From Anaerolineae bacterium (GTDB taxonomy: Bacteria; Chloroflexota; Anaerolineae; JAAEKA01): a DNA stretch of 64,000 bases. Where the stretch lies: NCBI GenBank assembly GCA_049294015.1, contig JBAQCH010000345.1, positions 4,279 through 68,278 on the forward strand. The letters run 5' to 3'. The first letter of the stretch is position 1; each line of letters starts with the position of its first letter. Under the pieces are notes generated by a model. That model saw only the letters and a list, made by a program, of their open reading frames with translations. It did not search any database and had not been told where the DNA came from. Of the stretch, positions 3-25,384 are shown one piece after another. Both the position numbers and the translations under genes were made by a program.

Positions 3-174
3 AACCTGCTGGGCTTTTACGGCGCAACACCCATCACCCGTCCTGCTGCCTACACCTTCAGCAACGGCACGACGGATCGCACCATCAACTGCGACAGCAC
101 CACCGTGGCCGAGCTGGCCGACGTGGTCTACACCCTATGGAGCGACCTCAGGAACCTGGGGCTGCTGCAATAGA
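3..174 (+). CDS. 3' end (C-terminal ~57 aa) of an upstream gene that starts outside the window
   Basis: Frame 3 is open from the window edge to TAG at 172-174 (…TFSNGTTDRTINCDSTTVAELADVVYTLWSDLRNLGLLQ*). No function is recognisable. Confidence 0.3.
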
Positions 175-856: not shown

Positions 857-869
857 AGGAGGGAGACCT

Positions 870-3800
870 ATGAGACCTTGCTTCATCCGAGCGCTGGCCG
901 CCGCCGCGCTGGCGCTGCTGGCGCTGGCGGCCTGTGTGCTCAGGCCCGAACAACCCGACACCTTTCCTGTGCGCGCGGTGATCACGCCCGGCGCACCGGC
1001 CACGCCGTACGCGGGCGCCCAGCTCGACTACGGCGGCCTGTACCAGTTCTTCGACGTCGCCGGTAGCGCGCCGTCGCCCTACCAGGACGGCAGCCACCAG
1101 GTCATCCCCTGGTATCTGTTGGAACCCACACGGGGCACCTACGACTGGACTGAGCTGGACGAGTACGTGGCCGACCGCGCGGGGTATGGCCTGCACATCG
1201 GCCTGGGCTTCAACACGGTGGACTACTCGCCCTACCACTGCGCCAGCGTGGGCGGTAGCCAGTGCTGGGCCGGCGACGACCGGGAGGATCGCATCTGGCT
1301 GCCGGCCGACATGCTGCGGCCGCAGGACCAGAACGTGACCTACGTGGTCTGCCCGCTGGACAGCACCTACCCGCGCCACCGCCTGCCCAAGTATTGGAGC
1401 AGTCAGTATCTGTCAGCCTACGAGGATTTTGTTTACGCGCTGGCCGCGCACATCGACAGCACGCCTGCGCTTGCCAACAACATCGACTGGATCGAGCTGC
1501 CCATCGGCGTCTACGGCGAGCTCAACCCAGGCGCGGGCCAGGACAGGGCCTGTCTGCAGGAGCTGGGGCTGACGCAAGACTTGTGGGAGGCGACGGTCGA
1601 GCAGATGATCGATATCTGGGTGGACGCGTTCGCCGGCACCGGGATCGACCTGAGCTTCCAGGGCACCAACTTCTACCTGGACAAGGGCAACCGCCAGCGC
1701 ATGAACGACTACGCGGCCGGCCAGGGGCTGGGCTTGCAGCACGCCAAGTGGCATCCGGACTGGGAGGACATGGCTGTGGCCTGTGCGTCCTGCTGGTCGC
1801 AAGGCAAGGGCATGGTGGACGCGCCGCTGCGCTGGGAGAACCAGACCATGTTCGCCATCGAGTATCCTGATCCACCGCTGTGGGGGGAGGGCAGCCGCAC
1901 GACGCTCAACCACGCCGAGGAGGACTACTGGAACATGGCAGCCTTCCTCGATCTCAAGGGCGACGTCTACAAGGCGCGCCTCTACCCGCGCGGGACGCTC
2001 GCGCGCCTGACGACCGAGAATCCCTACGTGCAGGGTATGATGCAGACGCTGCGCGACCTGGCCGGCAAGGACGAGCAGAGCGCGCCCTACGCGATTACCT
2101 GGATGCGGGAGACGGAGTGGGACTGGTGGCCCAAGTGCAACAACTTCGACTTCTACCTCTACGCCAGCACCGCCCAGGAGCCGCGCGTGGGATCGAGCTG
2201 TCCTGGCCTGAGCGCGCTGACGACCGATGGCCAGGCTGTCGCGGTCTACAACCTGGACGCGACCTATGCCCCCGGCCTCTGCCCCAACGACCGCGTCTAC
2301 AGCGCGACCTGCGATCCACGCTACCGCTATGCCCGCCAGACCGCGGCCGGCCAGCCCTACATCTACCTGGACGTCGATCCCAGGTATCGCTACGGCACAG
2401 GCGTCAACGCCACCGTCTCCATCGACTACCTGGACGTGGGCACGGACGAGATTAGGTTTCAGTGGCACAACGGCAGCGCGGTGCAGACGGAGAGCAGGGC
2501 CAAGACCAACACGCGCCAGTGGCGCACCTGGACGCTTGTTCTGGCCAACATGGACCTGACCGACCGCTTTGTATCCGGCGCCTCCGCCTGGGACTTCCGT
2601 CTCTGGGACGGCGGCGACGGCGTCGAGACCATCCACAGCGTCAAGTTCCAGCCTGCTAACGGCGGGACGCCAGCGGCTCCCACGGCCACGCCGACGGCGA
2701 CGGCCACCCCTGCGCCGGCGGCCACACCCTGGCGCGTGCGCGTCGATCCCGCCAGTCACACTTGGGAGGATGCCCTGATCTGGCTGACCAGACCCGATAC
2801 CATCTATGCCTCCCTGCCCACCTATTCGCTGCGGGCCAACAGCGACCAGGCATACCCCGTACCCGTCTACAACACCACCGTCGCCAGCCTGCTGGTTGAG
2901 GTGCCGTTCAGCCTGCCGCCCAACACGACGCTCAACCGCGCCACGCTGTATCTGACCCCGACCGGCGGCTATCTGCCCGACGCCATGACCCTGGTGTTGC
3001 GGCCGGTGGTCGCGGAGTGGGCGTTGCCGTCGTGGCGCTATCGCATCAATCCCGATCCTGGTGTGGGCGGCGCAGCTGTCCCCTGGGCCACGCCCGGGGC
3101 CTATGGCGTGGACGATGTGGGCGCGTCCTTCGGCTCGGTGCGGATCACGGCTGACGACATCGCCGCTTCTCTCCCTATCGAGCTGGACGTGGGCGGCGCG
3201 GTGCAGGCGGGGGGCGGGCTGGCGCTCAAGATCGAGCCGTGGTGTACGCCCAGCCCATCAACGGGGCGCTGCGAGGGCTTTGCCTACTTCGCCGGGAGCG
3301 CCAACCAGAACCTGGGCATCCGGCCCTACCTGGAGCTGGATGTGATCAGCAACACGCCGCCCACGGCCACACCCACAGCCACGCGCACGCCGACGCCGGT
3401 GAGCGTACCGCCGGGAACGGCTACACCGACGGCCACGCCTGGCGGGCCAACCCGCACACCCACCCCCTACCCGCCCAGCTTGCGGCAGGGACTGGTGATC
3501 AACGAGGTGTGCTCCAATCCGGTGACGACCGACAACGTGCCTGACGGGGAGATATCGGGCGACAGCGCGGTGGAGCTGTTCAACTCCAGCAGCGAGCCGC
3601 TGGACCTGTCACTGTACCGGCTGTGCGTCAACACCACCTGCCTGTGGCTGGAGGGAACCACCCAGCCCTTGGGTTACAAGGTCTGGTATCAGCAGTGGGA
3701 CGGTTTGGGCTTCATCGAGGGCGGCGCCAACACCGTTCGCTTGTATCGGGCGGGGGAGTCTCCGCTGGTGTTGGTGGACACGCTGGCTATTCAGAGCCAA

Positions 3801-3899
3801 ACCCCTGATCACTGTTGGGCCGCGGTGACGGATGCCTCGCCGGTGTATGTGGAGAAGTATCCTCCAACGTTGGGCAGAGGCAATAACTGGTTCGAGTAA
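870..3899 (+). CDS. Secreted lipoprotein: TIM-barrel glycoside-hydrolase-like N-terminal domain (GH42/GH5-like W..LEP..G.YDW..LD motif), Pro/Thr-rich linkers and a C-terminal lamin-tail domain (LTD)
   Basis: Lipoprotein signal MRPCFIRALAAAALALLALAAC. WYLLEPTRGTYDWTELDEYV resembles GH TIM-barrel N-termini. PT linkers occur twice (TPAAPTATPTATATPAPAATP). The C-terminal LVINEV…VELFNSSSEPLDLSLYRL matches the LTD signature. Confidence 0.6.
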   Translation: MRPCFIRALAAAALALLALAACVLRPEQPDTFPVRAVITPGAPATPYAGAQLDYGGLYQFFDVAGSAPSPYQDGSHQVIPWYLLEPTRGTYDWTELDEYVADRAGYGLHIGLGFNTVDYSPYHCASVGGSQCWAGDDREDRIWLPADMLRPQDQNVTYVVCPLDSTYPRHRLPKYWSSQYLSAYEDFVYALAAHIDSTPALANNIDWIELPIGVYGELNPGAGQDRACLQELGLTQDLWEATVEQMIDIWVDAFAGTGIDLSFQGTNFYLDKGNRQRMNDYAAGQGLGLQHAKWHPDWEDMAVACASCWSQGKGMVDAPLRWENQTMFAIEYPDPPLWGEGSRTTLNHAEEDYWNMAAFLDLKGDVYKARLYPRGTLARLTTENPYVQGMMQTLRDLAGKDEQSAPYAITWMRETEWDWWPKCNNFDFYLYASTAQEPRVGSSCPGLSALTTDGQAVAVYNLDATYAPGLCPNDRVYSATCDPRYRYARQTAAGQPYIYLDVDPRYRYGTGVNATVSIDYLDVGTDEIRFQWHNGSAVQTESRAKTNTRQWRTWTLVLANMDLTDRFVSGASAWDFRLWDGGDGVETIHSVKFQPANGGTPAAPTATPTATATPAPAATPWRVRVDPASHTWEDALIWLTRPDTIYASLPTYSLRANSDQAYPVPVYNTTVASLLVEVPFSLPPNTTLNRATLYLTPTGGYLPDAMTLVLRPVVAEWALPSWRYRINPDPGVGGAAVPWATPGAYGVDDVGASFGSVRITADDIAASLPIELDVGGAVQAGGGLALKIEPWCTPSPSTGRCEGFAYFAGSANQNLGIRPYLELDVISNTPPTATPTATRTPTPVSVPPGTATPTATPGGPTRTPTPYPPSLRQGLVINEVCSNPVTTDNVPDGEISGDSAVELFNSSSEPLDLSLYRLCVNTTCLWLEGTTQPLGYKVWYQQWDGLGFIEGGANTVRLYRAGESPLVLVDTLAIQSQTPDHCWAAVTDASPVYVEKYPPTLGRGNNWFE

Positions 3900-3900
3900 A

Positions 3901-3938
3901 CACAGGGCGCTTCGTGCGAAGCGCCCTGTGTCATTCTG
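3901..3938 (+). terminator. Intrinsic terminator after the lipoprotein gene
   Basis: A perfect 13-bp stem, CACAGGGCGCTTC-gtgc-GAAGCGCCCTGTG, lies 2 nt after the stop and is followed by TCATTCTG. Confidence 0.6.
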
Positions 3939-4279: not shown

Positions 4280-4308
4280 TTGGCACCTGCGCCAAAATCG
4301 TGTACAAT
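4280..4308 (+). promoter_or_regulatory. Sigma70-like promoter TTGGCA-17 nt-TACAAT (TG immediately upstream of the -10) for the helicase/defence block
   Basis: -35 TTGGCA at 4280-4285, a 17-nt spacer, and -10 TACAAT at 4303-4308 preceded by TG. It lies ~170 nt upstream of the 4481 start. The RBS is AAGGACCGCTAGATG. Confidence 0.45.
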
Positions 4309-4480
4309 GTCACACGTAGTTCCACCATCGGGTCCGGGAGTTGCGGGCGGGACTTGGTCCCCCCTCTATCCCGCTACAGTCGGGCGTTCATACCGCTTGA
4401 CCCGCTCTTGCACCGACAGAATCTTACGCAAGTCGTGCAAGCCCATCACCGACTTGTGACCAACCACCAAGGACCGCTAG

Positions 4481-8113
<3,633 letters not shown>

Positions 8114-8171
8114 CAGGTTGCTCAACAGTCGTTGCATCAAACCCATCGATGGTCAACAAGGAGAACGAAGC

Positions 8172-8813
8172 ATGTCCATTATCTGCAAACTGAGAGGACA
8201 CGACCTTGGCGACTGGCAATATCAGTCCGGGTCTGAGCGCTGTAACGCCAGCAGGTCCTGTCGCCGTTGCGACTTTGTCGAGCGAACCACTCCCCAGCAT
8301 GTCTGGAGTGAGTGGAGTCACACTGAGAGTGATCGATGCAAGCAAAGCAGAACGTGCGAAAAGTGTGCAAATCAGGAAGAACGCACGGTACACGTTTGGG
8401 GTCCACCTGAGTATGTAGAGGAGCGTGCTTGCACGCAGCAACGAGCGTGCCTTTCCTGCTCAGCAACAGAGCGCATGGGAGAACAACACGATTGGGGAGA
8501 GTGGACCTACCAACCCGGAGAGCCTTGTAAGGCAAGCCGAATATGTAGCCGATGTGAGTCGGCAGACGTCACAGAAACCCACTCTTTCAAGTTCCAATAC
8601 GCGTTTAGAGGTGTTGATCCGAGCACTCACCGATTAGCTCACCAGCTATTCTACGTGTGCTCACGGTGCAACGCAAAGAAAACGAACTGGGAGCCGCATG
8701 ACTGGGAGGTGAAAGAGGTGAAAAGAAGAGCCGATGGTAGTGTAATTGACGAGCGTGTTTACTGTGCGGTATGCGGCGCATGGGACTGGGGAAAAGAAGT
8801 GGCTGGGAGCTGA
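8172..8813 (+). CDS. Novel Cys/Trp-rich tandem-repeat zinc-ribbon protein, ~7 copies of a C-x4-C-x2-C…H-x-W-x-E-W module. Function unknown.
   Basis: An AAGGAG RBS lies 9 nt upstream of ATG 8172. Repeats include CNASRSCRRCDFVERTTPQHVWSEWSH, CKQSRTCEKCANQEERTVHVWGPPEY, CTQQRACLSCSATERMGEQHDWGEWTY and CKASRICSRCESADVTETH. G+C is lower than in the flanking genes. Confidence 0.55.
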   Translation: MSIICKLRGHDLGDWQYQSGSERCNASRSCRRCDFVERTTPQHVWSEWSHTESDRCKQSRTCEKCANQEERTVHVWGPPEYVEERACTQQRACLSCSATERMGEQHDWGEWTYQPGEPCKASRICSRCESADVTETHSFKFQYAFRGVDPSTHRLAHQLFYVCSRCNAKKTNWEPHDWEVKEVKRRADGSVIDERVYCAVCGAWDWGKEVAGS

Positions 8814-8908
8814 CGACGAGTTTACTCGCTACGCGCCCAGGGGGTTCCGGCCAAACCCGATCCTAACGAAATAACCAAGCCCGACCCTGTCGACCCTTAG
8901 CGTAGGAC

Positions 8909-11695
<2,787 letters not shown>

Positions 11696-11737
11696 GCACA
11701 ACACTCGATGATCGCCGCAATGATCAGGAGATGAAAC

Positions 11738-14700
11738 ATGGGTGAAGTCGACCTGGCAATAGAAAGTGCCAAAAACCTGCGTCACAGCATAGAGGTCCAT
11801 GGGGGATCGGTCATGCTGGCAGAAGACCGGATGACGTTTTTCGATGACTACGACGCCCTGCGGAACATGCGCCACTACGCTCCTGACGACTACTGGAATC
11901 TGATCAGTCAAAAACCAGGTTTCGAGCGCGAACTCATCGAAGCTCGCAACCTGTTGGCAGCAGCGCAGAGCGATCTACGCAAGACCTTGGATTTCTTGCG
12001 CAAGCAGACTGATCTCTTACCACAACAGGTCAACGACATCGCCCATCTATTGGATGACTATGACCATTCGGGCGCTCAATTCAGGGCACGGGTGGAGGAA
12101 GCTGCTGCTCGTCGGGCTATGGAGGCATCGATCGCAGCAGCACGCGCCAATTGGCAGCGCACGCGCAGTTCGGCGGCGCGCGTGCAGTTGATTGCAGTGC
12201 TGACCCAGTACCAGAGGTGGAACGATCTGCTGCCCCTGGCGTTGGAGGATGTCCAGAACGCGCCCAATGATCGCCGGGCCAGGCAGTTGCTTGCCTCGGT
12301 GTATGAACATCTGGGAAAGCGCGACGATCTTCTGGCATTGCTCAAGCAGGACCTGGCCAGCGCGCCGGGGGACGCCGCGCTCCGGCGCAGGATAGCCGAG
12401 CTCTTGGTGCAGATGGGGCGTTACGATGAGGCAATTGGCCAGTTGCAGCAGGACATGGCTGCGCCCAGACCGGAGCCATGGGCGGCTGACTTGATGCTTC
12501 AAGCGCTGGAACGCGCTAAGAAGACCGATGCCCTGATCCTGTTTCTGCAAGGCCAGATGCAGGCTAATCCTTCGGATCCTCGCCGGCGACAGAAGCTGGA
12601 GACCGTGCTCGAGCAAGAGGCGCGATGGGGCGACTTGATTCCTCTCCTGGAACAAGACCTGCAAACAAGTCCGGGCAATAGCGCGCTGCGCGAGCGGTTG
12701 GCTGTCAGCTATCGCAAGAGTGGGAGGCTCGACGATCTGCTGAACCATCATCTGTTGCCTGCCGCCAAGCAAGCTCCCGCTGAGTTCCCACCCAAACAGG
12801 CCGTGGTAGAGGCGCTTCTGGATGGACAGCGCGATACCGATGTGCTCGGTTACATCAAGCAAGAGCTGGCTGCTTCTCAGACAGGCGCAGGGTTTCTGTC
12901 CAGGTTCGTCGCCGTTCTGGCGAAGCGGAAAAGGTCCGATCTGGTCGAGCCATTGGCGATGTCTTGTCTGCCGTCGAGCCTTGGACGGATGGACGCCTAC
13001 ATGGAGATTGCACGCGGCTATCGTCAGAACGACGAGGTAAAGGCAGCGCTGGCCTTCCTGGACGCCATGGGCCAACGCTTCCCTGACGACAAAACTGTCG
13101 GGGATCTTCCCGCCGCGTTTCTGGTCGAATCGTTGGAGACAGCATCCTCAACGACGCGCTCGTTCGTGTTGAAACAGCTTTACGCTCGACCCGACAAGAC
13201 TCGCGCAGTCGTTGCGCTTAACGAGTTGTTCGCAAAGACGAACGACGTGAACGTGCAGCTTGACGTGTTGGCTGCACTGGTGGAAATCCAGAAGGCTCAG
13301 GCGCTGCCCTTCCTCAAAGCTTCACTTAGCCATAGCTCCAAGGAGGTGCGTCGCGAGGCCGCCAAGGCTCTTGGCCAGCTCGGCGACAAGCGCGCCAAGC
13401 GACCGTTGCGGCGGCAGCTCAAGGTCGAGCAGGATGCCTCGGTCAAGGTTGCACTCAAGGATGCTTTGCATCAGATCGATCCGAAGGCCAAGGAACATCC
13501 ACCGCTGACGGCTAGCTCGGTCGTCAAAGCCATGATTGGAGGGGGCTTGCTGGGAGCTATATGGGGATGGGTGCAGACATTCTTCTGGATCAGTCCGGGA
13601 CTATCGGATGGTTCGATCACCTTGATCTTGGGCGCTATTTCTGGGGCAGTCATCTTTGGCTTTCCGATTAGTGTCGTGCGGCCAAGCAAGAGCCAGGACG
13701 ATGGATGCTTGACTCTTTTCGGTGGCGGAGCTGTGACCGGTGGCGTTGTTGGAATCGCAATGATCTTGCTCATGCCAATTCTGATTGGATCCTCCATGCT
13801 CTCGTTCGGCTATATTAACGATAATGTCACGATCATCATGAGCGCAGCGATGGCCGCAGTGCTTTCAGTGCTTGGCGTCATCGTCTTCAAAACCAAGCGC
13901 TTTTGGATCTTGCCGGTGACTGGTCTGCTTCTGGTGGCAGTGGTCATTCTCCCGGTCATTCTCCCGGTGGCCGGTTGGACCAGCCGCATGGCCGACGTAA
14001 TCGCTCAGGGAAGAGCAGGTCTAGCTGCCATGTTCGATAAGACGTCGAACAGTTCGCAAAACGAGGAGATGGTAGTAGCTACGAACACAGCCACTCCTAT
14101 GGTGGAAGCTACGCGTTCGGACTCACCAACGCCACAGCCAACGCTAACCGTACCCGCTGGCGTCCCGGCGACTGCCCAGAGCGCCAAAGTGATGAGCGTC
14201 ACTGACGGTCGCGCAATCCGGGTGGAGCTTGTCGATGGCACGGCCACCGTTCGCTATGCTGGCCTGCTCATTCCGACAGGTGACACCCCGGGCGCCGCTG
14301 CCGCCGCGCAGGCAAACCGCGATCTCCTTCACAACCAGTCGGTTTGGCTCGAAACGACAAATCCCGTCCCAGCAGGCGCAGACGTCGAAGCCCAAATCTG
14401 GCTGGCCGCTGGAACGTTGGCCAATCTGCAGCTTGTCGAAATGGGCTACGCGCTACCTGATCCTACGCTGGAAGATGAAAGCGCTGCATCGCGACTACAG
14501 CAGGCGGCCCGTGAGGCATGGGAGGCGCAAGCGGGTTTCTGGGCCGGCGGCACGGATGTCGCGCCCTGGGCAGCGGTGGTGGTTGACACCGCTAACATCC
14601 GCCAGGGACCAGGTACTGATCGTCCGGTGGCTGGAAAGGCTACCCGCAGCGACATCTTCGTGATCAATGGGCGCAACGCCAACGGCGATTGGATCCTGGT

Positions 14701-14791
14701 CCAAACCTCTGCGGAGACAACAGCCTGGCTTTTTGCGGAGCTTGTGCAAACAACAGTGCCGGTAGCGACCATTCCGGTCGTCACGAACTAG
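11738..14791 (+). CDS. Multidomain membrane protein: N-terminal TPR-like ~40-aa repeats plus HEAT (PBS-lyase-type) repeats, a central block of ~5 transmembrane helices, then a C-terminal SNase (thermonuclease)-like domain followed by a bacterial SH3 (SH3b) domain
   Basis: Repeats DLLALLKQDLASAPGDAALRRRIAELLVQMGRYDEA and DLIPLLEQDLQTSPGNSALRERLAVSYRKSGRLDDL. HEAT segment EVRREAAKALGQLGDKRAKRPL. Hydrophobic helices span aa ~600-740. VTDGRAIRVELVDGTATVRYAGLLIPTGDTPGAAAAAQANRDLL…QLVEMGYA follows the SNase pattern V.DGDT…VRLIGID.PE, but Gly sits where the catalytic Glu is expected. ANIRQGPGTDRPVAGKA…GDWILV matches SH3b. Confidence 0.55.
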   Translation: MGEVDLAIESAKNLRHSIEVHGGSVMLAEDRMTFFDDYDALRNMRHYAPDDYWNLISQKPGFERELIEARNLLAAAQSDLRKTLDFLRKQTDLLPQQVNDIAHLLDDYDHSGAQFRARVEEAAARRAMEASIAAARANWQRTRSSAARVQLIAVLTQYQRWNDLLPLALEDVQNAPNDRRARQLLASVYEHLGKRDDLLALLKQDLASAPGDAALRRRIAELLVQMGRYDEAIGQLQQDMAAPRPEPWAADLMLQALERAKKTDALILFLQGQMQANPSDPRRRQKLETVLEQEARWGDLIPLLEQDLQTSPGNSALRERLAVSYRKSGRLDDLLNHHLLPAAKQAPAEFPPKQAVVEALLDGQRDTDVLGYIKQELAASQTGAGFLSRFVAVLAKRKRSDLVEPLAMSCLPSSLGRMDAYMEIARGYRQNDEVKAALAFLDAMGQRFPDDKTVGDLPAAFLVESLETASSTTRSFVLKQLYARPDKTRAVVALNELFAKTNDVNVQLDVLAALVEIQKAQALPFLKASLSHSSKEVRREAAKALGQLGDKRAKRPLRRQLKVEQDASVKVALKDALHQIDPKAKEHPPLTASSVVKAMIGGGLLGAIWGWVQTFFWISPGLSDGSITLILGAISGAVIFGFPISVVRPSKSQDDGCLTLFGGGAVTGGVVGIAMILLMPILIGSSMLSFGYINDNVTIIMSAAMAAVLSVLGVIVFKTKRFWILPVTGLLLVAVVILPVILPVAGWTSRMADVIAQGRAGLAAMFDKTSNSSQNEEMVVATNTATPMVEATRSDSPTPQPTLTVPAGVPATAQSAKVMSVTDGRAIRVELVDGTATVRYAGLLIPTGDTPGAAAAAQANRDLLHNQSVWLETTNPVPAGADVEAQIWLAAGTLANLQLVEMGYALPDPTLEDESAASRLQQAAREAWEAQAGFWAGGTDVAPWAAVVVDTANIRQGPGTDRPVAGKATRSDIFVINGRNANGDWILVQTSAETTAWLFAELVQTTVPVATIPVVTN

Positions 14792-14811
14792 ACGCATGAC
14801 GAGAGATCACC

Positions 14812-15852
14812 ATGGCACATCAGTCAACGAGCAAGGAGGAATGGGCAACAGCAGCAGCCGAGAATGCTGCTACCTTGAGACACGAGATCAACCGTCTGAA
14901 GTCGGATTACGGTCCATCCTTGATGTCTGGACGCGATTATGCTGGTTTCTTTGCTCATGCCAAGCAAATCTCTGAGTTGTTCAAGGCGCTTAAGCCTTTG
15001 AAGTGGGAAGTAAGGGAAGAGCTATGGTCAGATTTCAATCAAACCTGCGATGAAGTACGCCGAGCCAGCGATAGTGAGCAGGAGAATCGTCGTTACAGGT
15101 CTGCGGAGGTCAAAGAGGTGGCGCTTCGTCTTATAAGGGTCGCCACTACATCGGCGGAAGTAGCTGCTGATCGTGACGATGTTCAGAGAGCGAGAGATGC
15201 CTTCAACGAGGCTCACGATTGGCTCCGTGAGCACGCGGGCGAGTTGTTGAGAAACGACGCGAAATTGTGCTGGGATCAGTTTCACGACGGAAAACGCACG
15301 CTTGGCTTTCGAATCGAGCAGCTTCAGGACTGGGCCTATAAAGAGGCGCGTCAAGCGATCCAAGAAGCACGCCGTGCTCTGGGTCGTGACGACCCATTCG
15401 CAGCCCTCAAGGAGATCAAAGCTGCGCAACACAGTTGTAAGGGCCTTTATTTGCGCAAGGATCAAAGCGAAGAGATACGCAGCGAATTCACCGAAATCTG
15501 GGAACAAGCTCAAGAGAACATTGATGAGTATCGTCGTGAGCAGGCCAGAAGACATGAAGAGTATCTCGAACGTCAAGCTGAGAGAGAGAGAAAGCATCAG
15601 GAATGGGTCAGGCGGCAACAGGAGCATATTGAACGATGGTCAAGCAAGGTTGATCGGCTCGAGCAAGTTATCCGAAGCCTGGAGGACCAAATCAGCGATT
15701 TGGAGTATAAGCGTTCCACAGCTCGGAACCGCGACTTTGCTGAGAACTGCGCAGATTGGATCCGCGAAAAACATGCGAAGATCGCTGATATCGAGGAGAC
15801 AATTCGCGACTTAAACAATCGCATCCGAGATGTTCAGCATCAAATCCACTAG
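14812..15852 (+). CDS. Coiled-coil protein of unknown function, Glu/Arg/Gln-rich, probably co-transcribed with 11738..14791
   Basis: It starts 21 nt after the preceding stop. Long heptad-like charged segments appear (EYRREQARRHEEYLERQAERERKHQEWVRRQQEHIERW). Confidence 0.5.
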   Translation: MAHQSTSKEEWATAAAENAATLRHEINRLKSDYGPSLMSGRDYAGFFAHAKQISELFKALKPLKWEVREELWSDFNQTCDEVRRASDSEQENRRYRSAEVKEVALRLIRVATTSAEVAADRDDVQRARDAFNEAHDWLREHAGELLRNDAKLCWDQFHDGKRTLGFRIEQLQDWAYKEARQAIQEARRALGRDDPFAALKEIKAAQHSCKGLYLRKDQSEEIRSEFTEIWEQAQENIDEYRREQARRHEEYLERQAERERKHQEWVRRQQEHIERWSSKVDRLEQVIRSLEDQISDLEYKRSTARNRDFAENCADWIREKHAKIADIEETIRDLNNRIRDVQHQIH

Positions 15853-16013
15853 CGGACAGGAGGTAGATATGACATATTGATTCTAAGCATTGAGTTTTCC
15901 GGCTCGTCGACATGTGGATGCCCCACATCATGGTTGACGCAGGAGATAAGGTGCGCTACAAGCGCAGCCGTCCAGTCGCCAACTAACCCATCAGCAAACA
16001 GGAGAGTTGAACC

Positions 16014-17525
16014 GTGAAGATCAAGCTCATTTCCATCGTGCTCGTGTCAGCCTTTCTGGCAGCGCTAGCAGGCTGCGTTGCCCCGCCCGCGTCAGCTCCC
16101 CCTTCTCCACAAGGGGAGACCACAGAATCTGCAGCTGTCGTTTCTACTGAGAGCGCCACGGGCCAGGAACCAGTGAGAATCACTTTTTGGGAGTGGTTTG
16201 GCGGCGCGTGGGGCGATTTCTTTGAGGAGGAAGCCCAGAGATTTCACGCCGCACATCCAGATGTTGTCGTAGAAGTGTCCCATTTTCCTGACCAAAGCGC
16301 CTATCGTGAAGTGCTCGCGCTCGCTTTCGAGTCAGGTAGCGCGCCGGACACATTCCTAAGGCGCCACACATTCAGCCAGGTTTTCGAGAACGGGTGGGCT
16401 CAGTCAATCGATCCTTGGTTAACGCCAGAGTGGCTGGCGAAGTTTCCTGAGGCTTCGTTTGTTGAGACCAAGAACGTCTGGGATGGAAGAACCTACGCGT
16501 TTCCCGTAACGGCGCTCAAGTTAGATCGAGTAATCTACGTGAACGAGGACATGTTCCGGGCCGCTGGCCTGACTGATGCAGAGGGCAACATCACGGTACC
16601 TGAGACCTGGGATGATCTGAGGTCAATGGCAAAGAAGATCACTGAAACGGGCAACGGAGCCTACTATGGCATCGGAATCGGCATCAAAGATCCTCGCCAG
16701 ATGAGTTGGTGGTTCGATCTGGCGGACCTTGCGGGAGCTTCAGGTACTTACGAATTTGACTATCGAACTGGTGCCTACAATTTTGGCACCGACCCTGCTT
16801 TTTCCCGCGTAATCGAGCTCCTGCTTGGCATGAAGGCTGACGGAAGTGTCTATCCCTATGAAAGCACACTGGATGACAGTAATTTATACACTGGGTTTGG
16901 TCAAGGTCAGTACGCGATGTTTTTGAGTGGTTCTTGGACAGCGAGTAATCTGGAACGGGACTTTCCCGAGCTGAAAAACTACCGCATTATTCCGCTTCCG
17001 ATTCCAGACGAAGGACGCCAAGGGGGGTTACCGTACACACCGGGCAGTGGGCAGTACTACATGTCGGCAACGACCCAGTATCCTGATGAAGCCTGGCTGT
17101 GGCTGGATTGGATATCTTCACGTGGATTTCATGAGCGCATGGTCTCCAAGGCATTGGATTACTCTGTATACCCCGACCTAAACACTGCCGACCTAATGAC
17201 TGATCCAATCCAGCGCCAAGCCTACGATGCCTTGTTCCAGTACCTTGTTTCGTTACCATCACCTACAGTTCGCAATCCTGAGACGACCGCAGTGATACCG
17301 GGTCCTGTGATTCCGGATACCGGCGATGTCTTGGTGGGGATTTATACCGGGCAGATCAAGGACTGGGAAAATGCGTTACTAGACCTCGATGCGAGGAAGC
17401 AAGCCGCTTTTGATGCAGCCATCGAGAAAGCTCAAAGCGAAGGCGCTGATGTCAGCATTGAGGACTTCGTCTTTCCGGATTGGAACCCCATGGAAAACTA
17501 CATAACGGTGCCAGAAGGTCCATGA
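16014..17525 (+). CDS. ABC transporter extracellular solute-binding lipoprotein (family-1 sugar SBP)
   Basis: GTG start with an AGGAG RBS. Lipobox LAALAGC. Typical SBP composition. Two permease genes lie downstream. Confidence 0.8.
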   Translation: MKIKLISIVLVSAFLAALAGCVAPPASAPPSPQGETTESAAVVSTESATGQEPVRITFWEWFGGAWGDFFEEEAQRFHAAHPDVVVEVSHFPDQSAYREVLALAFESGSAPDTFLRRHTFSQVFENGWAQSIDPWLTPEWLAKFPEASFVETKNVWDGRTYAFPVTALKLDRVIYVNEDMFRAAGLTDAEGNITVPETWDDLRSMAKKITETGNGAYYGIGIGIKDPRQMSWWFDLADLAGASGTYEFDYRTGAYNFGTDPAFSRVIELLLGMKADGSVYPYESTLDDSNLYTGFGQGQYAMFLSGSWTASNLERDFPELKNYRIIPLPIPDEGRQGGLPYTPGSGQYYMSATTQYPDEAWLWLDWISSRGFHERMVSKALDYSVYPDLNTADLMTDPIQRQAYDALFQYLVSLPSPTVRNPETTAVIPGPVIPDTGDVLVGIYTGQIKDWENALLDLDARKQAAFDAAIEKAQSEGADVSIEDFVFPDWNPMENYITVPEGP

Positions 17526-17670
17526 GGAGACTTCACCCACCGTGCAGGGCCGGAACATCGGCGTGATGATGAAGCCAGATCCTAACTAGACCTGGATCGT
17601 CGAGAGAGTATGGAAAGTGACTAGGCGGCTGGAATGCTTCTGCCGCCTGGTCACTTCCAGTGGAGTCACA

Positions 17671-18582
17671 ATGATATCTGCTGCCACAGCGAGAATCCGA
17701 CGGAATCTCTGGGTGTATGTGTTTATTGCGCCGATGTTGTTGCTCTTTGTTTTGTTTACATTGTATCCGGTCTTTGGATCCTTTCGCTACACGCTGTACG
17801 ACTGGAATGGCATCGGTGAACCAAGGCGTTACGTCGGCATCACCAACTTCTTTGATACATTCAGGGATCCCTGGTTTTGGAATGCATTCAAGAACACTCT
17901 GATCTATACGTTGGTGCTCGTTCCCATTCAACTTGCGATCGCTTTAGTGATGGCCGTTATCCTTGACCGACCTTGGCTCCGAGCCAGATACGTGTACCGT
18001 GCAGCCTTCATTGCTCCCATAGTCACTTCATCAGCAATAGTAGGCATCATCATCACTCTCCTGGTAACGACAGCCAATCGGGGCGTCAACCAGCTCGTAC
18101 TCAATTTCGGTCTCTTGACGAGGCCATTTGATTGGCTGGGTGATGCGAGAACCGCCATGCCTATCCTCATTGGTACAGGGATATGGATCGGACTGGGATA
18201 CCCGATCATCTACTTCCTGGCCGCCCTACAGTCGATTGATAAACAGTTATATGATGCGGCGAAAGTTGATGGTGCAGGCATTTGGGCCAGCTTCCGCCAC
18301 GTCACTGTTCCTCAAATCCTGCCTGTTGGCGTTGTGGTTGCGTTGCTGGTCGCGCTAAGTAGTCTGAGGGTCTTCGACATTGTGCAAGTGATGACCAAAG
18401 GTGGCCCGTATTTTGCCACGGATGTAGTCAGCACATATGTGTATCGATACACTTTTGCAACGGACTTGGCTGATCCAAACGTCGGACGGGCATCAGCAGC
18501 GGCCTTCCTGGTGAGTCTGTTGATTGGTGCAGTGACCGTGCTTGAAGTAGGAATGATCCGCAGAATCCGTGCGCAGAAATGA
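17671..18582 (+). CDS. ABC sugar transporter permease (MalF/UgpA-like)
   Basis: ATG at 17671 with a GGAG RBS. Six or more transmembrane helices. ABC-permease EAA-like loop AAKVDGAGIWASFRHVTVP. The longer ORF start at 17617 is unlikely. Confidence 0.75.
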   Translation: MISAATARIRRNLWVYVFIAPMLLLFVLFTLYPVFGSFRYTLYDWNGIGEPRRYVGITNFFDTFRDPWFWNAFKNTLIYTLVLVPIQLAIALVMAVILDRPWLRARYVYRAAFIAPIVTSSAIVGIIITLLVTTANRGVNQLVLNFGLLTRPFDWLGDARTAMPILIGTGIWIGLGYPIIYFLAALQSIDKQLYDAAKVDGAGIWASFRHVTVPQILPVGVVVALLVALSSLRVFDIVQVMTKGGPYFATDVVSTYVYRYTFATDLADPNVGRASAAAFLVSLLIGAVTVLEVGMIRRIRAQK

Positions 18583-18600
18583 GTGAAGGAGCGTGCTTCA

Positions 18601-19443
18601 ATGCTTCCGTATTCAAAACCAGTCAGGATTTCGAGGTTTGTTCTCTATGCCGTACTATCTATTGTGGCCTTCCTTTACACCTATCCGTTTCTCTGGATGG
18701 TATCCGGATCCTTCAAAAAGCCTGGTGAATTCTACGAGCAAGGCCTTCGGCTAGTCGTCGACAACCCGAACTGGCAGAACTTCCTAAGCGTGTGGAACAC
18801 TGTCGGCTTCGATATCTACTTCCGCAACACCGTAGTTGTTGCCGTTGTGACCACTCTGCTAGTCCTGCTCTTTACGTCCATGGCTGGCTATGTTATTGCT
18901 CGTCACGAGTTTCCTGGTCGCAGACTCGTTGTAGGTTGCCTCCTGGTGACGATCTTCCTTCCCAGGGGATACACAATCGTACCTATTTTTGAACTGATCA
19001 AAGACTTAGGGCTCTTGAATACACTTTGGGCGGTAATCTTGGTCAGCACTGGAACCAGCATGGTTTTCAATACCTTTCTTTTTGCAGGCTACTTCTTGAC
19101 CTTACCCAAGGAACTGGAAGAGGCTGCTCTTCTTGACGGCGCAAACCTTCCACAGATCTATGGGAGAGTCGCCATACCTTTTGCTCGGCCAATGATCGCA
19201 ACTGTCGCTCTATTCGAGTTCATCGAGCACTGGAATAGCTTCTTCATTCCCTTGGTTTTCACCCTTGGCCGGCCAGATCTGCGAACGTTAGCAGTTGGTA
19301 TGTATGCCTTTGTCGGGCAGCACCACACTCAATGGACGCTTATTTGTGCAGCTGCTACTATCTCACTTCTACCTATCGCCATACTGTTTATGATATTGCA
19401 GCGTCAGATCATTGACGGCATTGCGGGTGCAATTCATGGGTGA
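18601..19443 (+). CDS. ABC sugar transporter permease (MalG/UgpE-like)
   Basis: ATG at 18601 with a GAAGGAG RBS 9 nt upstream. EAA motif EEAALLDGANLPQIYGRVAIP. Confidence 0.75.
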   Translation: MLPYSKPVRISRFVLYAVLSIVAFLYTYPFLWMVSGSFKKPGEFYEQGLRLVVDNPNWQNFLSVWNTVGFDIYFRNTVVVAVVTTLLVLLFTSMAGYVIARHEFPGRRLVVGCLLVTIFLPRGYTIVPIFELIKDLGLLNTLWAVILVSTGTSMVFNTFLFAGYFLTLPKELEEAALLDGANLPQIYGRVAIPFARPMIATVALFEFIEHWNSFFIPLVFTLGRPDLRTLAVGMYAFVGQHHTQWTLICAAATISLLPIAILFMILQRQIIDGIAGAIHG

Positions 19444-19503
19444 TCCTACGCAGACTGGAATTCAGTCATTCTCTGACCATAGCCTGATGAATCGGAGTAA
19501 TCA

Positions 19504-22500
19504 ATGGCGCTAACCAATCGTGACCGCGTCGGCAAGGCGCTTGAGCTACTGCAGCAGGGTCTTCGCCCCTACGTCCAGCGCGAGATGGAGGCGGAGTATC
19601 GTTCAGCCTGGCTGAAGCAGGCCGCTTACAGCCTGCACAAGGACGAGGGCTGGGCCGACAGCGACCCGTTTCTGGACGCCCAGGCGCTGCTAGTCATCAT
19701 GTGGGACCAGTGGAATAGCGTCTTCAAGGAGACCTTAGGCTTCGCCGAGCGCGCCATCGTCAGTGAACTACGCGAGGCGCGCAACACTTGGGCGCATCAG
19801 GCTCCGTTCACCACCGACGACGCCTACCGCGCCCTGGACAGCATCGCCCGCCTTTTGACCGCGATCTCAGCGCCCGAAGCCCAAGAGGTCGAGCGCCAAA
19901 AGCAGGAGCTGCTGCGCCTCAAATTCGAGGAGCAGGCCCGCCACGAGCGCCGCAAAGCTGCCATCGCGCCCACCGAGGGCCGGCCCAGCGGCAGCCTCCT
20001 CCCCTGGCGCGAGGTGGTGACGCCCCATCCCGACGTGGCCTCGGGCCGCTACCTGCAGGCCGAGTTTGCGGCCGACCTGTGGCAGGTCTACATGGGCGAA
20101 GGCGCCGGCGAGTACCGCGACCCGCTCCAGTTCTTCGAGCGCACTTTCATCACCGATGGCCTGCGCCGGCTGCTGGTCAACGCGCTGCGCCGCCTGGACG
20201 GCCAGAACGCCGACCCCGTGATCGAGCTACAGACCAACTTCGGCGGCGGCAAGACCCACTCCATGCTGGCCCTGTTCCACCTGTTTTCTGGCGCTCCCGT
20301 AGGCCGTCTCGCCGGCGTCGAGCCGCTGGTGCGCGAGGCCGGCGCCGCGCCGCCGCCGACCGTTCACCGGGCCGTGCTGGTGGGCAACAAGATTTCGCCC
20401 GGCCAGCCCAGCCGCAAGCCGGACGGCACGGTGGTCCACACGCTGTGGGGCGAACTGGCCTGGCAGTTGGGCGGGGCCGAGGCCTATGCCCTGCTGGCCG
20501 ACGACGACCGCAACGCCACCAACCCTGGCGACCCACTGCGTCTGCTGTTCAACCGCTACGCCCCTTGCCTCCTCCTGGTCGACGAGTGGGTGGCCTACGC
20601 CCGCCAGTTGCACGACCGGGCCGATCTGCCGGGCGGCTGCTTCGACACCCACTTCACCTTTGCCCAGACCCTGACCGAGGCCGCCAAAGCTGCCGATCGC
20701 TGCCTGTTGGTGGTCTCCATGCCCGCCAGCGAGATCGAGATGGGCGGCGAGCGCGGCAAGGTCGCGCTGGACCGGCTCAAGAACGCTATCGGCCGGCTGG
20801 AGTCGCCCTGGCGGCCGGCCAGCGCTGAAGAGGGCTTCGAGATCGTGCGCCGCCGCCTGTTCCAGCCGCTGACCGACACCAGCAAGTTCGCCGCGCGCGA
20901 CCTGGTGGTGGGCAGCTTTGCCCGCATGTACCGCGAACAGCCGCAGGACTTCCCGGCCGAGACGCGCGAGGGCGCGTACGAGCGGAGGATGCAGGCGGCC
21001 TATCCCATCCACCCGGAGTTGTTCGACCGGCTGTATAGCGAGTGGTCCAGCCTGGAGAAGTTTCAGCGCACGAGAGGCGTACTGCGCCTGATGGCCGCGG
21101 TGATCCACGCCCTGTGGGAGCGCGGCGACAGCAATCTGCTGATCCTGCCGGCCACCGTGCCCATCGACGACGCCAACGTCCAAGCCGAACTGACCCGCTA
21201 CCTGGACGACAACTGGGTACCCGTGATCGAGCGGGACGTGGACGGCCCGGCCAGCCTGCCCCTCAAGCTGGATCGCGACAACCCGACCCTGGGTCGCTTC
21301 TCGGCCAGCCGCCGCGTGGCGCGCACCATCTACCTGGGATCGGCCCCCACTGCCAAGGCCAGCAACCCCGGCATCGACGACCGGAGCATTCGCCTGGGCT
21401 GTGCGCAGCCGGGCGAGAACGTGGCCGCCTTCGGCGATGCGCTGCGCCGCCTGACCGACAACGCCACCCACCTCTACGTGGATCGCAGCCGCTACTGGTA
21501 CAACACCCAGCCCAGCGTCGGTCGCCTGGCCCAGGACCGCGCCGCGCAGATGGATCGCGAAGATCACATCTGGCCGGAACTCAAGCGTCGGCTGCGCGCA
21601 GACCGCCAGCGTGGAGAGTTCAGCGCCGTCCATGCCGCGCCTGACTCCAGCGGCGACGTCCCTGACGAGATGACGACGCGTCTGGTGATCTTGGGACCGG
21701 GCTACCCGCACACACGGCGCGATCCCGCCAGCAAAGCACTGTCCGAAGCTAGGAGCATCCTGGCCTGGCGCGGCAGTGCGCCGCGGCTGTATCAGAACAT
21801 GGTGGTCTTCTTGGCCCCGGACAGTAACCGGCTGCCGGAGCTAGAAGACGCCATCCGCCATTACCTGGCGTGGAAGTCCATCGACGACGAGAAGGACACC
21901 CTGAACCTGGATACCTTCCAGCGCAACCAGGCCAAGACCAAGCACGAGCAGGCCGACCAGACGGTCAACGCTCGCATCAAGGAGGCCTACGTCTGGTTGC
22001 TCTCGCCGCACCAAGAGGATCCCCAAGACCCGCAAACGCTCAACATCGACGAGGCCAAGCTGGCGGGGCAGGACAGCCTGGCGGTGCAGGCCAGCCGCAA
22101 GCTCAAGAACGAGGACTGGCTGAGCACCGAGTTCGGCGGCGTGCCGCTGCGCATGGCGATGGATCGCTACAACCTGTGGCAGGGCGCCGAGCGCGTCCTC
22201 CTGCGCCAATTGTGGGAGTACTTTGCCCGCTACCCCTACCTGCCCCGCCTGTGCGCCCAAGACGTGCTGCTGGGAGCGGTGCAGAACGGCGTCGGTCAGA
22301 TTACCTGGCACGAGAACTTCGCTTACGCGGCCGGCTGGGACGACAGCCGCCAACGCTACCTGGGGCTGCGGGCGGGAGAGAACACCAGCGTGCTGCTGGA
22401 CGGCCAGAGCCTGCTGGTCAAACCGGCGGCCGCCCAGCGCCAGATCGACGCCGACCGTCAGGAGCAGGAGAAACGCACGCCACCGCCGGGAGGTGAGGGC

Positions 22501-22812
22501 ACAGGTACGACCGTGAGGACGCCGCCGCCTGGTGGAGAAACACCACCGCCGCCCGATCCTCAGCCACCTGTCGTTAGGCATCGCCGTTTCCACGGTTCGG
22601 TCAAGCTGGACACATTACGACTGTCATCCCAGGCCGGCGCTGTCCACGAGGCCGTCGTCCAGCATCTGCAAAGCCTGGTGGGAGCGGAGGTGCAGGTCAC
22701 GCTGGAAATCCAGGCCTACCTGCCTGATGGCGCGCCGGAGAATGTGGTGCGGACGGTGACTGAGAATGCGCGGACGCTGAGGTTCGAGGGCTTTGGGTTT
22801 GAGGACACGTAA
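19504..22812 (+). CDS. DUF499-family protein: N-terminal Swt1-like HEPN domain plus P-loop ATPase, the ATPase component of the helicase-methylase-ATPase defence triad
   Basis: HEPN Rx4H motif REARNTWAHQ. Walker A TNFGGGKTHS. The overall ~1100-aa architecture is typical of DUF499. GGAG RBS before ATG 19504. Confidence 0.8.
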   Translation: MALTNRDRVGKALELLQQGLRPYVQREMEAEYRSAWLKQAAYSLHKDEGWADSDPFLDAQALLVIMWDQWNSVFKETLGFAERAIVSELREARNTWAHQAPFTTDDAYRALDSIARLLTAISAPEAQEVERQKQELLRLKFEEQARHERRKAAIAPTEGRPSGSLLPWREVVTPHPDVASGRYLQAEFAADLWQVYMGEGAGEYRDPLQFFERTFITDGLRRLLVNALRRLDGQNADPVIELQTNFGGGKTHSMLALFHLFSGAPVGRLAGVEPLVREAGAAPPPTVHRAVLVGNKISPGQPSRKPDGTVVHTLWGELAWQLGGAEAYALLADDDRNATNPGDPLRLLFNRYAPCLLLVDEWVAYARQLHDRADLPGGCFDTHFTFAQTLTEAAKAADRCLLVVSMPASEIEMGGERGKVALDRLKNAIGRLESPWRPASAEEGFEIVRRRLFQPLTDTSKFAARDLVVGSFARMYREQPQDFPAETREGAYERRMQAAYPIHPELFDRLYSEWSSLEKFQRTRGVLRLMAAVIHALWERGDSNLLILPATVPIDDANVQAELTRYLDDNWVPVIERDVDGPASLPLKLDRDNPTLGRFSASRRVARTIYLGSAPTAKASNPGIDDRSIRLGCAQPGENVAAFGDALRRLTDNATHLYVDRSRYWYNTQPSVGRLAQDRAAQMDREDHIWPELKRRLRADRQRGEFSAVHAAPDSSGDVPDEMTTRLVILGPGYPHTRRDPASKALSEARSILAWRGSAPRLYQNMVVFLAPDSNRLPELEDAIRHYLAWKSIDDEKDTLNLDTFQRNQAKTKHEQADQTVNARIKEAYVWLLSPHQEDPQDPQTLNIDEAKLAGQDSLAVQASRKLKNEDWLSTEFGGVPLRMAMDRYNLWQGAERVLLRQLWEYFARYPYLPRLCAQDVLLGAVQNGVGQITWHENFAYAAGWDDSRQRYLGLRAGENTSVLLDGQSLLVKPAAAQRQIDADRQEQEKRTPPPGGEGTGTTVRTPPPGGETPPPPDPQPPVVRHRRFHGSVKLDTLRLSSQAGAVHEAVVQHLQSLVGAEVQVTLEIQAYLPDGAPENVVRTVTENARTLRFEGFGFEDT

Positions 22813-23020: not shown

Positions 23021-23602
23021 ATGAACGATTTTCGCTCATTGCATTTGGATGAAATAAGAAGGGACCTTTTTTTGAGAGGGTATAGTGGCACAGAAGTGAA
23101 CGAACTGTTGGATTTCCCGATTCTGCTAATTCCTGGTCCCGTTACGCCTCTCGATCTGGATGAACCCATCCAACAACTGACAAACCACATTGCCTTCCTC
23201 TCGAAGGATTTGTCAAGTGAGGGAGTCACAAACGTGGTAGCTGTTCGAAGAGATGTCCCCAAGCATTATGTCGAAGAGCGTCACGCTCATGTTGACTTGG
23301 GAACAATTGTGGTTAGTCTCATAAGCTTGCAGCAATTAGATGGCTTTGCAAATATCGCTCAGATTCTCGACTTTTTTCTTAACCTGATGAAGCTGAGGTT
23401 CAGTGAAGGACGAACAACAGACCTCACTCCGAGTGTTACGTTTGACCTGCAAGTTCATAACGGGGATAAGGTAGTCAGCTGGCATGTTGAAGGTCCTGCC
23501 AATGACCTAATCAAAATGACCACCCCCGCGCGTATTGCTGCCATAACCGCCGGCCTGAAGGAAACCTCCAAAGATGACTATACTCGATGCTCAGATACTT
23601 GA
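23021..23602 (+). CDS. Hypothetical protein, first gene of an AT-richer cassette
   Basis: Protein-like composition and no recognisable motifs. The region is visibly lower in G+C than its flanks. Confidence 0.45.
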   Translation: MNDFRSLHLDEIRRDLFLRGYSGTEVNELLDFPILLIPGPVTPLDLDEPIQQLTNHIAFLSKDLSSEGVTNVVAVRRDVPKHYVEERHAHVDLGTIVVSLISLQQLDGFANIAQILDFFLNLMKLRFSEGRTTDLTPSVTFDLQVHNGDKVVSWHVEGPANDLIKMTTPARIAAITAGLKETSKDDYTRCSDT

Positions 23603-24905: not shown

Positions 24906-25384
24906 GGTTGTGATGCCCTCTTCTGCATCGTGCTGTACACCGTTGGCGTAGCAGAAACAGTCATTTCGGCCACCGGCATACTCGCCATTCCGATCAACCG
25001 CGCCTCACCCACCACTTCCAACCCCAGCACGCCATGCCCCCGATCTACTGACCGGTCAGCCTACCGCCCCGGCGCGCCACTTCCTTGCCAGTCTTGGTGT
25101 TACAATCACAACTCCAAGCCCTCGTATGCAAGCGGGCTGGCACGAGGTGCGGATTCTTGGGGACCGAATGTGATGGGGTATTGCGCGGGCGGTGGAAGAG
25201 TGGTATGATGATCATGAGTGTCTGCAAACCGCGGTGAGCCACGCAGGTTTCGGCACGACGCCCCGCATACGAAAGAAAGCGGAATTGCGAGTTGGCGGGA
25301 AATGACGACCGGCATTACCTCCAATCACGTAGTTAGGCGGTCCTCCTTTCTCCAGATAAGATCTTTGCGCAAGGAGAAGATTCC

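Follow-up and report, generated by a model that had tools for sequence, protein, structure and literature searches.

We analysed a 64,000-nucleotide stretch of DNA (hereafter, the window) from the metagenome-assembled genome of an Anaerolineae bacterium (Chloroflexota), in which nine genes, all on the + strand, fill positions 4481-22812 and include those for the three proteins of the Hma defence system, namely hmaA, hmaB, and hmaC. The best explanation of this arrangement, and one that we consider likely, is an intact Hma system with both of its insertion hotspots filled, there being one gene between hmaA and hmaB (the A/B slot) and five between hmaB and hmaC (the B/C slot), and with the B/C cargo built up in two layers, the second of which includes a sugar importer as a metabolic passenger. 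Related loci used in the comparisons below carry the labels L003-L032. The features of the block are as follows (aa, amino acids; ABC, ATP-binding cassette).

4481-8113 (+): hmaA, Swi2/Snf2 helicase that ends in a NOV_C (formerly DUF3883) PD-(D/E)xK nuclease
8172-8813 (+): gene for a 213-aa Cys-rich protein with ~32-aa repeats of the form H-x-W...C-x5-C-x2-C
8909-11695 (+): hmaB, DUF1156 N6-adenine DNA methyltransferase
11454-11695 (+): last ~240 bp of hmaB, kept as a scar in relatives, as defined by nucleotide homology
11738-14791 (+): gene for a 1017-aa protein (the giant), an old cargo gene abutting the 3' end of hmaB
14795-19488 (+): genome-specific replacement segment, defined by the break in nucleotide homology to L007, L008, and L010
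14812-15852 (+): gene for a 346-aa all-helical protein
16014-17525 (+): gene for the solute-binding lipoprotein of a CUT1-like carbohydrate ABC importer (SBP_bac_1, 3.4e-32)
17617-18582 (+): gene for ABC permease 1 (BPD_transp_1; six predicted transmembrane segments; best NCBIfam matches UgpA, GlcT, and MalF)
18583-19443 (+): gene for ABC permease 2 (BPD_transp_1; best NCBIfam matches GlcU, MalG, and UgpE)
19504-22812 (+): hmaC, DUF499 AAA+ ATPase with a fused Swt1-like HEPN domain at its N-terminus

The triad is identified as Hma, a family also named the type-1 DUF499-centred BREX-related system, by the PADLOC and Pfam profile matches of each protein and by the co-orientation of the genes in one locus. 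Here, the PADLOC models of the same names were matched over nearly their whole lengths by HmaA (1620 bits, profile positions 1-1166 of 1176), HmaB (1218 bits, 3-961 of 967), and HmaC (1082 bits, 2-940 of 941). The Pfam matches were SNF2-rel_dom, Helicase_C, and NOV_C (1.4e-18) for HmaA, DUF1156 (2e-32) and MethyltransfD12 for HmaB, and HEPN_Swt1 (1.9e-37) and DUF499 (4e-24) for HmaC. A first-pass annotation of this DNA had read a helicase, DUF1156 methylase, and DUF499 ATPase triad on one strand and had believed PADLOC to catalogue it as Hma, and on both counts the profiles agree. Moreover, all three open reading frames (ORFs) are full length and their catalytic motifs are intact. In HmaA, these are motifs I, II, and VI (GAGKT at 132, DEAH at 230, and QRFGRIHR at 608) and the D...EVK nuclease motif that is retained in the NOV_C domain; in HmaB, FAGGG at 130 (motif I) and DPPY at 524 (motif IV); and in HmaC, the HEPN motif RNTWAH (Rx4H), the Walker A motif GGGKT at 247-251, and the Walker B motif LLLVDE. 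The same annotation had suggested that the triad might be degenerating, a view that the full-length frames and the intact Walker, DEAH, DPPY, PD-ExK, and HEPN Rx4H motifs do not support. The markers of type 2 (DUF3780 and an N-terminal HKD domain) and of type 3 (PglZ) were both absent from the Pfam matches of the 19 proteins encoded by the block and the flanking DNA. As judged from these profiles and motifs, the Hma system in this Anaerolineae genome is complete and probably functional.

The DNA between the hma genes is compositionally foreign. Windowed G+C stands at 0.65-0.71 in hmaA, hmaC, and the flanks and falls to 0.55 at 8001-9000, 0.56-0.60 at 11.5-15 kb, and 0.49-0.54 at 15-19.5 kb. 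By G+C at third codon positions (GC3), the genes sort into a host-like class of 0.85-0.88 (hmaA, 0.85; hmaC, 0.86; dnaB, 0.88; recD2; and the gene for a 1009-aa protein upstream), an intermediate class (hmaB, 0.76; the giant, 0.66), and a low class of 0.54-0.57 that holds the Cys-rich gene (0.55), the 346-aa gene (0.54), and the genes for the binding protein and both permeases. The computed dips, with GC3 of 0.54-0.66 set against 0.85-0.88, bear out the lower G+C that had been judged by eye, and so, too, does the Cys-rich gene at 8172-8813 correspond to the additional low-G+C gene that had been noticed between helicase and methylase. A resident sugar-utilisation locus lies at 53458-60331 on the - strand, where genes for a GH3 glycosidase, two permeases, a binding protein, and a LacI regulator are found without an ATPase gene. 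Its GC3 of 0.72-0.82 makes the cargo cassette atypical in a like-for-like comparison, and thus the coding of membrane proteins alone does not account for the low G+C of the cassette. A local duplication of this resident locus was rejected as the source of the cassette, as the permeases share 25-29% identity and the GC3 values differ.

Within the hma genes themselves, we observed that GC3 drops to 0.64-0.71 over the last ~200 codons of hmaA (7500-8113) and hmaC (22200-22812), where identity to relatives is also lowest, in keeping with the C-terminal sensor domains of the family, which have been described as hypervariable. There is a further dip in hmaB at codons 401-600 (10109-10708), with GC3 of 0.53-0.64 as against 0.78-0.88 elsewhere in the gene. 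Because this stretch coincides roughly with the one least conserved among HmaB relatives, it suggests a target-recognition-side stretch that was swapped in by recombination.

Comparison with close relatives divides the B/C cargo into its two layers. In L007, the order runs from the 3' end of hmaB (88% aa identity) through the giant (66%), a 61-aa ORF, a 1619-aa NACHT-HEAT NTPase, and a Cys-rich gene to the 5' end of hmaC, whose N-terminal product is 95% identical in amino acids, with 92% identity at the nucleotide level. The NACHT-HEAT protein (~1620 aa, with a glycine-zipper N-terminus), which drew no PADLOC match, directly follows the giant region in L007, L008, and L010, and homologues of the Cys-rich gene stand after it in L007 (8939-9469) and L010 (13584-14261). 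In the window, homology to these relatives stops a few bases from the stop codon of the giant (14794) and restarts ~15-35 bp before the ATG of hmaC (at 19489 by blastn). Since it breaks at 14794 and resumes at 19489, the interval 14795-19488 represents a clean, genome-specific replacement, and a search of the window for remnants of the NACHT gene returned none. The interruption by the giant directly after hmaB is ancestral for the lineage, as it occupies the same position in three related lineages. This bears on two earlier claims. The first-pass annotation had treated the 7.8 kb between hmaB and hmaC as a single block of unrelated cargo, which does not hold, the giant being an ancestral companion and only 14795-19488 being specific to this genome. 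It had also named an interruption shared with relatives as the outcome that would undo its notion of a nested insertion, and here the picture is split, with the position of the giant shared by three lineages, but with the second half specific to this genome and with hmaA-hmaB-hmaC contiguous in a more distant locus (L025, below).

Other relatives show the Hma genes being lost. L008/L009 and L010/L011 retain the giant and the NACHT-HEAT gene, and L010 also the Cys-rich gene, though in all four hmaA is gone and hmaB is reduced to its last 85-107 codons. L010, which sits at the same chromosomal site as the window, continues from the Cys-rich gene to the 3' end of dnaB without an hmaC, and in L003, hmaA is internally deleted and hmaB truncated. 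That the giant and the NACHT-HEAT gene persist where hmaA, most of hmaB, and hmaC have been lost argues for an existence of the giant independent of Hma. The remaining piece of hmaB forms a recognisable scar, found at 8418-8672 in L008, 6406-6660 in L009, 4908-5228 in L010, and 4868-5188 in L011 with 82-87% nucleotide identity. L008/L009 match the window over 11454-14794 at 85% nucleotide identity, and the match to L010/L011 begins at 11430. Between L008 and L010, the scar is 83% identical, as compared with ~68% for most of the giant and NACHT genes, and in L008, any ORF in its hmaB frame is shorter than 30 aa. On these two grounds, the scar may be conserved as DNA, and it may then be regulatory, for instance as the promoter region of the giant. 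Immediately left of the scar is an ORF of ~100 aa (8098-8439 in L008; 4553-4837 in L010) whose product is homologous, at 43% identity, to the N-terminal glycine-zipper region of the NACHT-HEAT protein, and it looks like a truncated paralogue that was left by the deletion of hmaA and hmaB.

The giant combines a cytoplasmic TPR/HEAT region (~1-590), four predicted transmembrane segments (~622-751), a linker, a staphylococcal nuclease (SNase)-like OB domain (~815-935), and an SH3b domain (950-1003), with the SNase-like and SH3b part predicted to lie outside. TPR/HEAT and SH3_3 are Pfam matches, and the transmembrane segments come from hydropathy. For the SNase domain, Pfam gave no match and a sequence search of the PDB with the C-terminus gave no real one. 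PADLOC matched the domain to its 'SNc+LTD' candidate model (4.7e-9), and the top 50 Foldseek matches of this region were all to staphylococcal nuclease, with E ~2e-3 and TM-scores of 0.4-0.5 from an AlphaFold2 model with a predicted local distance difference test (pLDDT) score of 53.8. The SNase fold is thus modestly supported by the PADLOC match and this low-confidence model. An hhalign comparison of the giant with the S. aureus nuclease aligned only 21 columns. Of the catalytic and Ca2+ residues looked for (DGDT, D40/T41/E43, R35, and R87), in a weak alignment read by eye, DGDT is replaced by DGRA and DTPE by IPTGD, and there is no Arg at the R87 position, and so the domain is probably non-catalytic and more likely to bind than to cleave. 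Among 5.8 billion proteins, only three other clusters contain the giant, each encoded directly after hmaB sequence or a remnant of it, and the giant was not present in 17 more distant Hma loci. The cargo content as first described (a HEAT, transmembrane, SNase, and SH3b giant, a coiled-coil protein, and a sugar importer) holds for the TPR/HEAT, transmembrane, and SH3 parts, the helical protein, and the importer, and less well for the SNase domain, given its missing Pfam match.

The Cys-rich gene of the A/B slot begins with an ATG at 8172, which is preceded by the ribosome-binding site AAGGAG. Its product had no matches in Pfam, NCBIfam, or PADLOC and is a member of a family that has no name and counts 641 representative clusters (E<=1e-3). 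To judge from the spacing of the Cys residues, the repeats may be zinc-ribbon-like. Fusions to DarT or EAD7 (effector-associated domain 7) occur in other members, which would point to conflict systems, these links to defence being circumstantial.

In the replacement segment, the 346-aa protein is predicted to be entirely helical (AlphaFold2 pLDDT of 92), with helices of up to 87 residues. Fold searches of the PDB returned only generic helical matches with E>0.04, none of them meaningful. Its identification as LmuB was rejected, as the PADLOC match (1.2e-4) is marginal and best explained by coiled-coil composition. Just three homologues were found, none in a defence or ABC context. The binding protein has a signal peptide and a lipobox (LAGC), both read directly from the sequence, and its homologues, of no more than 67% identity, are found in ordinary metabolic loci as cassettes of a binding protein and two permeases (L012-L015). 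For permease 1, the true start is probably the ATG at 17668, and for both permeases, all NCBIfam matches fall below the equivalog cut-offs. A cognate ABC ATPase gene is found neither in the block nor elsewhere in the window. Such a gene is likewise missing from the homologous cassettes in L012-L015 and from the resident locus at 53-60 kb, which makes it plausible that the cassette uses a shared host ATPase. By the standards of its own family, the cassette is complete and could work with such an ATPase, on which, going by the resident locus, this genome probably relies.

The interruption of an hma operon is in itself nothing unusual. Insertions between hmaA, hmaB, and hmaC have been reported in 66.5% of loci and described as a 'defence gene insertion hotspot' (PMC11232893), and so a split operon is the norm rather than an anomaly. 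The idea of a nested insertion in the first-pass annotation was therefore right in general terms, although the split, with the same slots in use among relatives, is not an oddity of this locus. In our distant set of 17 metagenome loci, whose HmaC proteins share 55-69% identity with that of the window, all three genes are fully contiguous in L025, and hmaB and hmaC are contiguous in 11 loci (L017, L019, L020, L022, L024, L025, L027, L028, L029, L031, and L032). Gaps between hmaB and hmaC measure 0.7 kb in L016, 0.4 kb in L018, 4.5 kb in L021, 4.9 kb in L023, and 2.6 kb in L030, and gaps between hmaA and hmaB occur in L019, L020, L027, and L029. The annotated ORFs in these gaps are mostly known defence genes. 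In the B/C slot, these encode Ppl, Schlafen/AlbA, and HEPN proteins (L021), TIR-APAZ, short pAgo, and AbiEi/AbiEii (L023), and PDC-S31 and AbiE (L030), and in the A/B slot, DarT with Macro (L019), AAA_15 with OLD-TOPRIM (L027), and a 1450-aa HATPase protein (L020). Except for two short antisense ORFs (L029 and L006), which are probably spurious, the gap ORFs are co-oriented with the hma genes. Both slots thus are occupied in the window, and those of relatives are empty or hold different genes. A separate scan of genome contigs with HmaB yielded only six loci, mostly fragmentary or distant.

Transcription of the block was considered from three features on the + strand.

3900-3931 (+): GC-rich hairpin that adjoins the upstream 1009-aa gene just past its stop codon (-28.9 kcal/mol, z -4.9 vs shuffles)
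4280-4308 (+): sigma-70-like promoter match, TTGGCA-17-TACAAT (10/12 consensus), in the 580-bp spacer before hmaA
~17611-17658 (+): long hairpin of ~20 bp, without a U tract, between the binding-protein and first permease genes

The hairpin at 3900-3931, which has no U tract behind it, is likely the end of the preceding transcription unit, and its place directly after the upstream stop codon suggests that hmaA begins a new one. The promoter at 4280-4308 had been called strong, and its 10/12 match stands, but such sigma-70-like matches are not enriched in the region, with four found against 5.0 expected from shuffles. Every cargo gene is co-oriented, the intergenic spacers measure 0-161 bp, and on the + strand there are no terminator-like sites in the intergenic spacers of the operon, such that read-through could keep hmaC expressed. 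The spacer at 17526-17670, which arrived with the cargo, folds to -64.3 kcal/mol (z -4.6). Its hairpin could stabilise the message of the binding protein or attenuate transcription before hmaC, and it is the chief source of doubt about whether the system still functions as one unit. The first-pass annotation had supposed that the operon must function stoichiometrically, a need made uncertain by the one experimental study, in which HmaA of Halomonas meridiana was enough by itself to protect E. coli from T4, by means of its NOV_C nickase (PMC11232893).

Drawing on the literature of the family, the system would work as follows. HmaB would methylate host adenines and so mark self, and HmaC, an ORC/STAND-like AAA+ ATPase, would assemble a scanning complex and sense invaders, with its fused HEPN RNase as a possible last-resort suicide effector. 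HmaA would translocate on unmodified DNA and nick or cut it through the C-terminal PD-(D/E)xK domain. As for the cargo, the A/B slot holds the gene for the Cys-rich repeat protein, and the first layer of the B/C slot is the giant, a rare protein that has long been a companion of this Hma lineage. The second layer (14795-19488) would be a recent swap in which the NACHT-HEAT and Cys-rich genes gave way to the helical protein and the importer cassette from a donor of lower G+C. The importer would then rely on an ATPase shared with the host and work as a metabolic passenger, and hmaC would stay expressed by read-through from the hmaA promoter. As to how the segment was exchanged, recombination in the conserved flanks (the 3' end of the giant and the 5' end of hmaC) is the most economical reading. 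No integrase or transposase was found among the Pfam matches of the window proteins scanned, nor any tRNA genes or Rfam families across the whole window, and the 9-mer GATCCTAAC shared by two spacers is at chance level. An integron-like or site-specific cassette array, considered in view of the uniform orientation of the cargo, was rejected, there being no recombinase gene and no attC- or att-like repeats at the borders.

Several points weigh against this reading of the locus. That the ABC cassette is purely a passenger is an assumption, and the putative promoter before hmaA is only a match to the consensus. Moreover, no donor of the replacement segment was found, the cargo borders have no flanking repeats (direct or inverted), att sites, or insertion sequence ends beyond chance, and L007, the only close relative that shows both hma ends, is a 10-kb fragment. 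The possible attenuation at the spacer hairpin belongs here as well, and it also feeds the view that the triad is decaying, in which the insertions have cut the link between hmaC and the other two genes and the system is heading for loss. In favour of decay are the relatives with just the last 85-107 codons of hmaB (L008-L011), without hmaC (L010), or with an internally deleted hmaA and truncated hmaB (L003), and the hairpin in the cargo, which could be polar on hmaC. We nonetheless regard decay as very unlikely, because none of the three ORFs is truncated relative to the PADLOC profiles and no catalytic motif is lost, GC3 in hmaA and hmaC is host-like, hmaC is undisrupted at 92% nucleotide identity to L007, and most published hma loci carry insertions, too (PMC11232893).

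An enlarged system, in which some or all of the cargo takes part, with for example the giant and Cys-rich protein as lineage-specific accessory sensors or effectors, is a little less improbable, though still unlikely. It would account for the restriction of the giant, in all four known protein clusters, to the position directly after hmaB or its remnant, for its match to a PADLOC candidate model, for the recurrence of a Cys-rich homologue in giant-bearing loci, and for the fusion of that family to DarT and EAD7 elsewhere. Against this, the giant and NACHT-HEAT gene outlast hmaA, most of hmaB, and hmaC, the 17 distant Hma loci lack the giant, and the ABC cassette and helical protein are found elsewhere in ordinary, non-defence contexts. 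What might suggest an assembly or binning chimera of different organisms is that G+C steps sharply at gene boundaries and that the source is a metagenome-assembled genome. However, contigs from two sequencing runs (SRR28060529 and SRR28060807) are 100% identical to the window at 10719-20009 and 11320-20259, and each covers hmaB sequence, all five B/C cargo genes, the start of hmaC, and both junctions. As two separate run assemblies agree over both junctions, a chimera is excluded for practical purposes. Furthermore, each junction lies precisely at a gene boundary with a ribosome-binding site, and the slot boundaries of L007 are identical. An intact Hma system with a two-layered B/C cargo and a passenger importer therefore remains our preferred reading.

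One further proposal concerns the older residents of the B/C slot. The giant, the NACHT-HEAT NTPase, and the Cys-rich protein might be parts of one undescribed, membrane-anchored NLR-type defence module that resides in the B/C slot of one Hma lineage, a suggestion that we consider doubtful and put forward tentatively. If true, this NLR-type module would always be tied to the final ~250 bp of hmaB, where its promoter may lie, and would outlive a deleted Hma, and its NTPase partner would have been swapped here for a sugar importer that rides on the transcription of a defence operon. Bacterial NACHT/NLR-like antiphage proteins offer a comparison for the NACHT-HEAT protein of the relatives. Only the proteins in L007, L008, and L010 are comparable in this respect, as the window has neither gene nor remnant, and their role in defence is putative.

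Accessory defence genes are also embedded between the conserved genes of type I restriction-modification and BREX loci. There, as here, cargo is exchanged among relatives while the flanks stay, though the cargo in the window differs in being partly a nutrient importer and in its strict co-orientation with the operon. With Hma as previously described (PADLOC; Payne et al. 2021; PMC11232893), the locus shares the three proteins, their order A-B-C on one strand, and insertion points in both slots. It differs from the Hma of PMC11232893 in that the host is a metagenome-assembled Anaerolineae (Chloroflexota), HmaC has an N-terminal HEPN domain, and the cargo consists of the Cys-rich gene, giant, helical protein, and sugar ABC cassette, and not of Septu, PARIS, Ppl, or an AAA_21 pair. 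The family has since been renamed as the type-1 DUF499-centred BREX-related systems in a 2026 survey, which proposed a restriction-modification-like mechanism and counted the HEPN-fused ATPase variant in 1370 of 2446 taxa (PMC12839542). To this variant, the core of our locus is identical, with DUF499-HEPN, a DUF1156 methyltransferase, and Swi2/Snf2-PD-(D/E)xK, and without DUF3780, HKD, or PglZ. A difference is that the core loci of that survey embed backup nucleases (PMC12839542), whereas a metabolic cassette is embedded here.

The locus does not overturn the current understanding of Hma. Rather, it extends a recently validated but poorly understood family to the Anaerolineae and provides a clean natural example of hotspot turnover, with an old resident gene next to a precisely bounded replacement. 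The sister genomes display the opposite outcome, in which Hma is deleted and the cargo survives with a conserved hmaB scar. The one unusual feature is a cargo that includes, in place of another defence gene, an ordinary sugar-importer cassette. A hotspot that can capture metabolic cassettes calls for caution in predicting defence genes from 'guilt by embedding'.

Outside the locus, a second foreign block is found between hmaC and dnaB (23021-25933), where three genes of low GC3 (0.44-0.50) encode proteins of 193, 443, and 182 aa, with DUF4760 as the sole family match. On the other side, the genes at 137-3899 may be further island content, and they encode a protein of 239 aa, which has a transmembrane segment at its C-terminus and a weak CHAT-like match, and the 1009-aa protein, which starts with a hydrophobic, signal-like stretch and matches a lamin-tail domain weakly. 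The island is bordered, both in the window and in L010, by the 3' end of dnaB, a - strand gene at 26329-28527 in the window, and the 732-aa DnaB-family helicase that it encodes has an extra P-loop-like region near residues 565-655. Beyond it, the long + strand ORFs at 28970-34585 have a GC1 (G+C at first codon positions) of 0.74-0.84 that exceeds their GC3 of 0.58-0.68, the opposite of the real genes of this genome, and the true genes in this region are thus probably in other frames or on the - strand.

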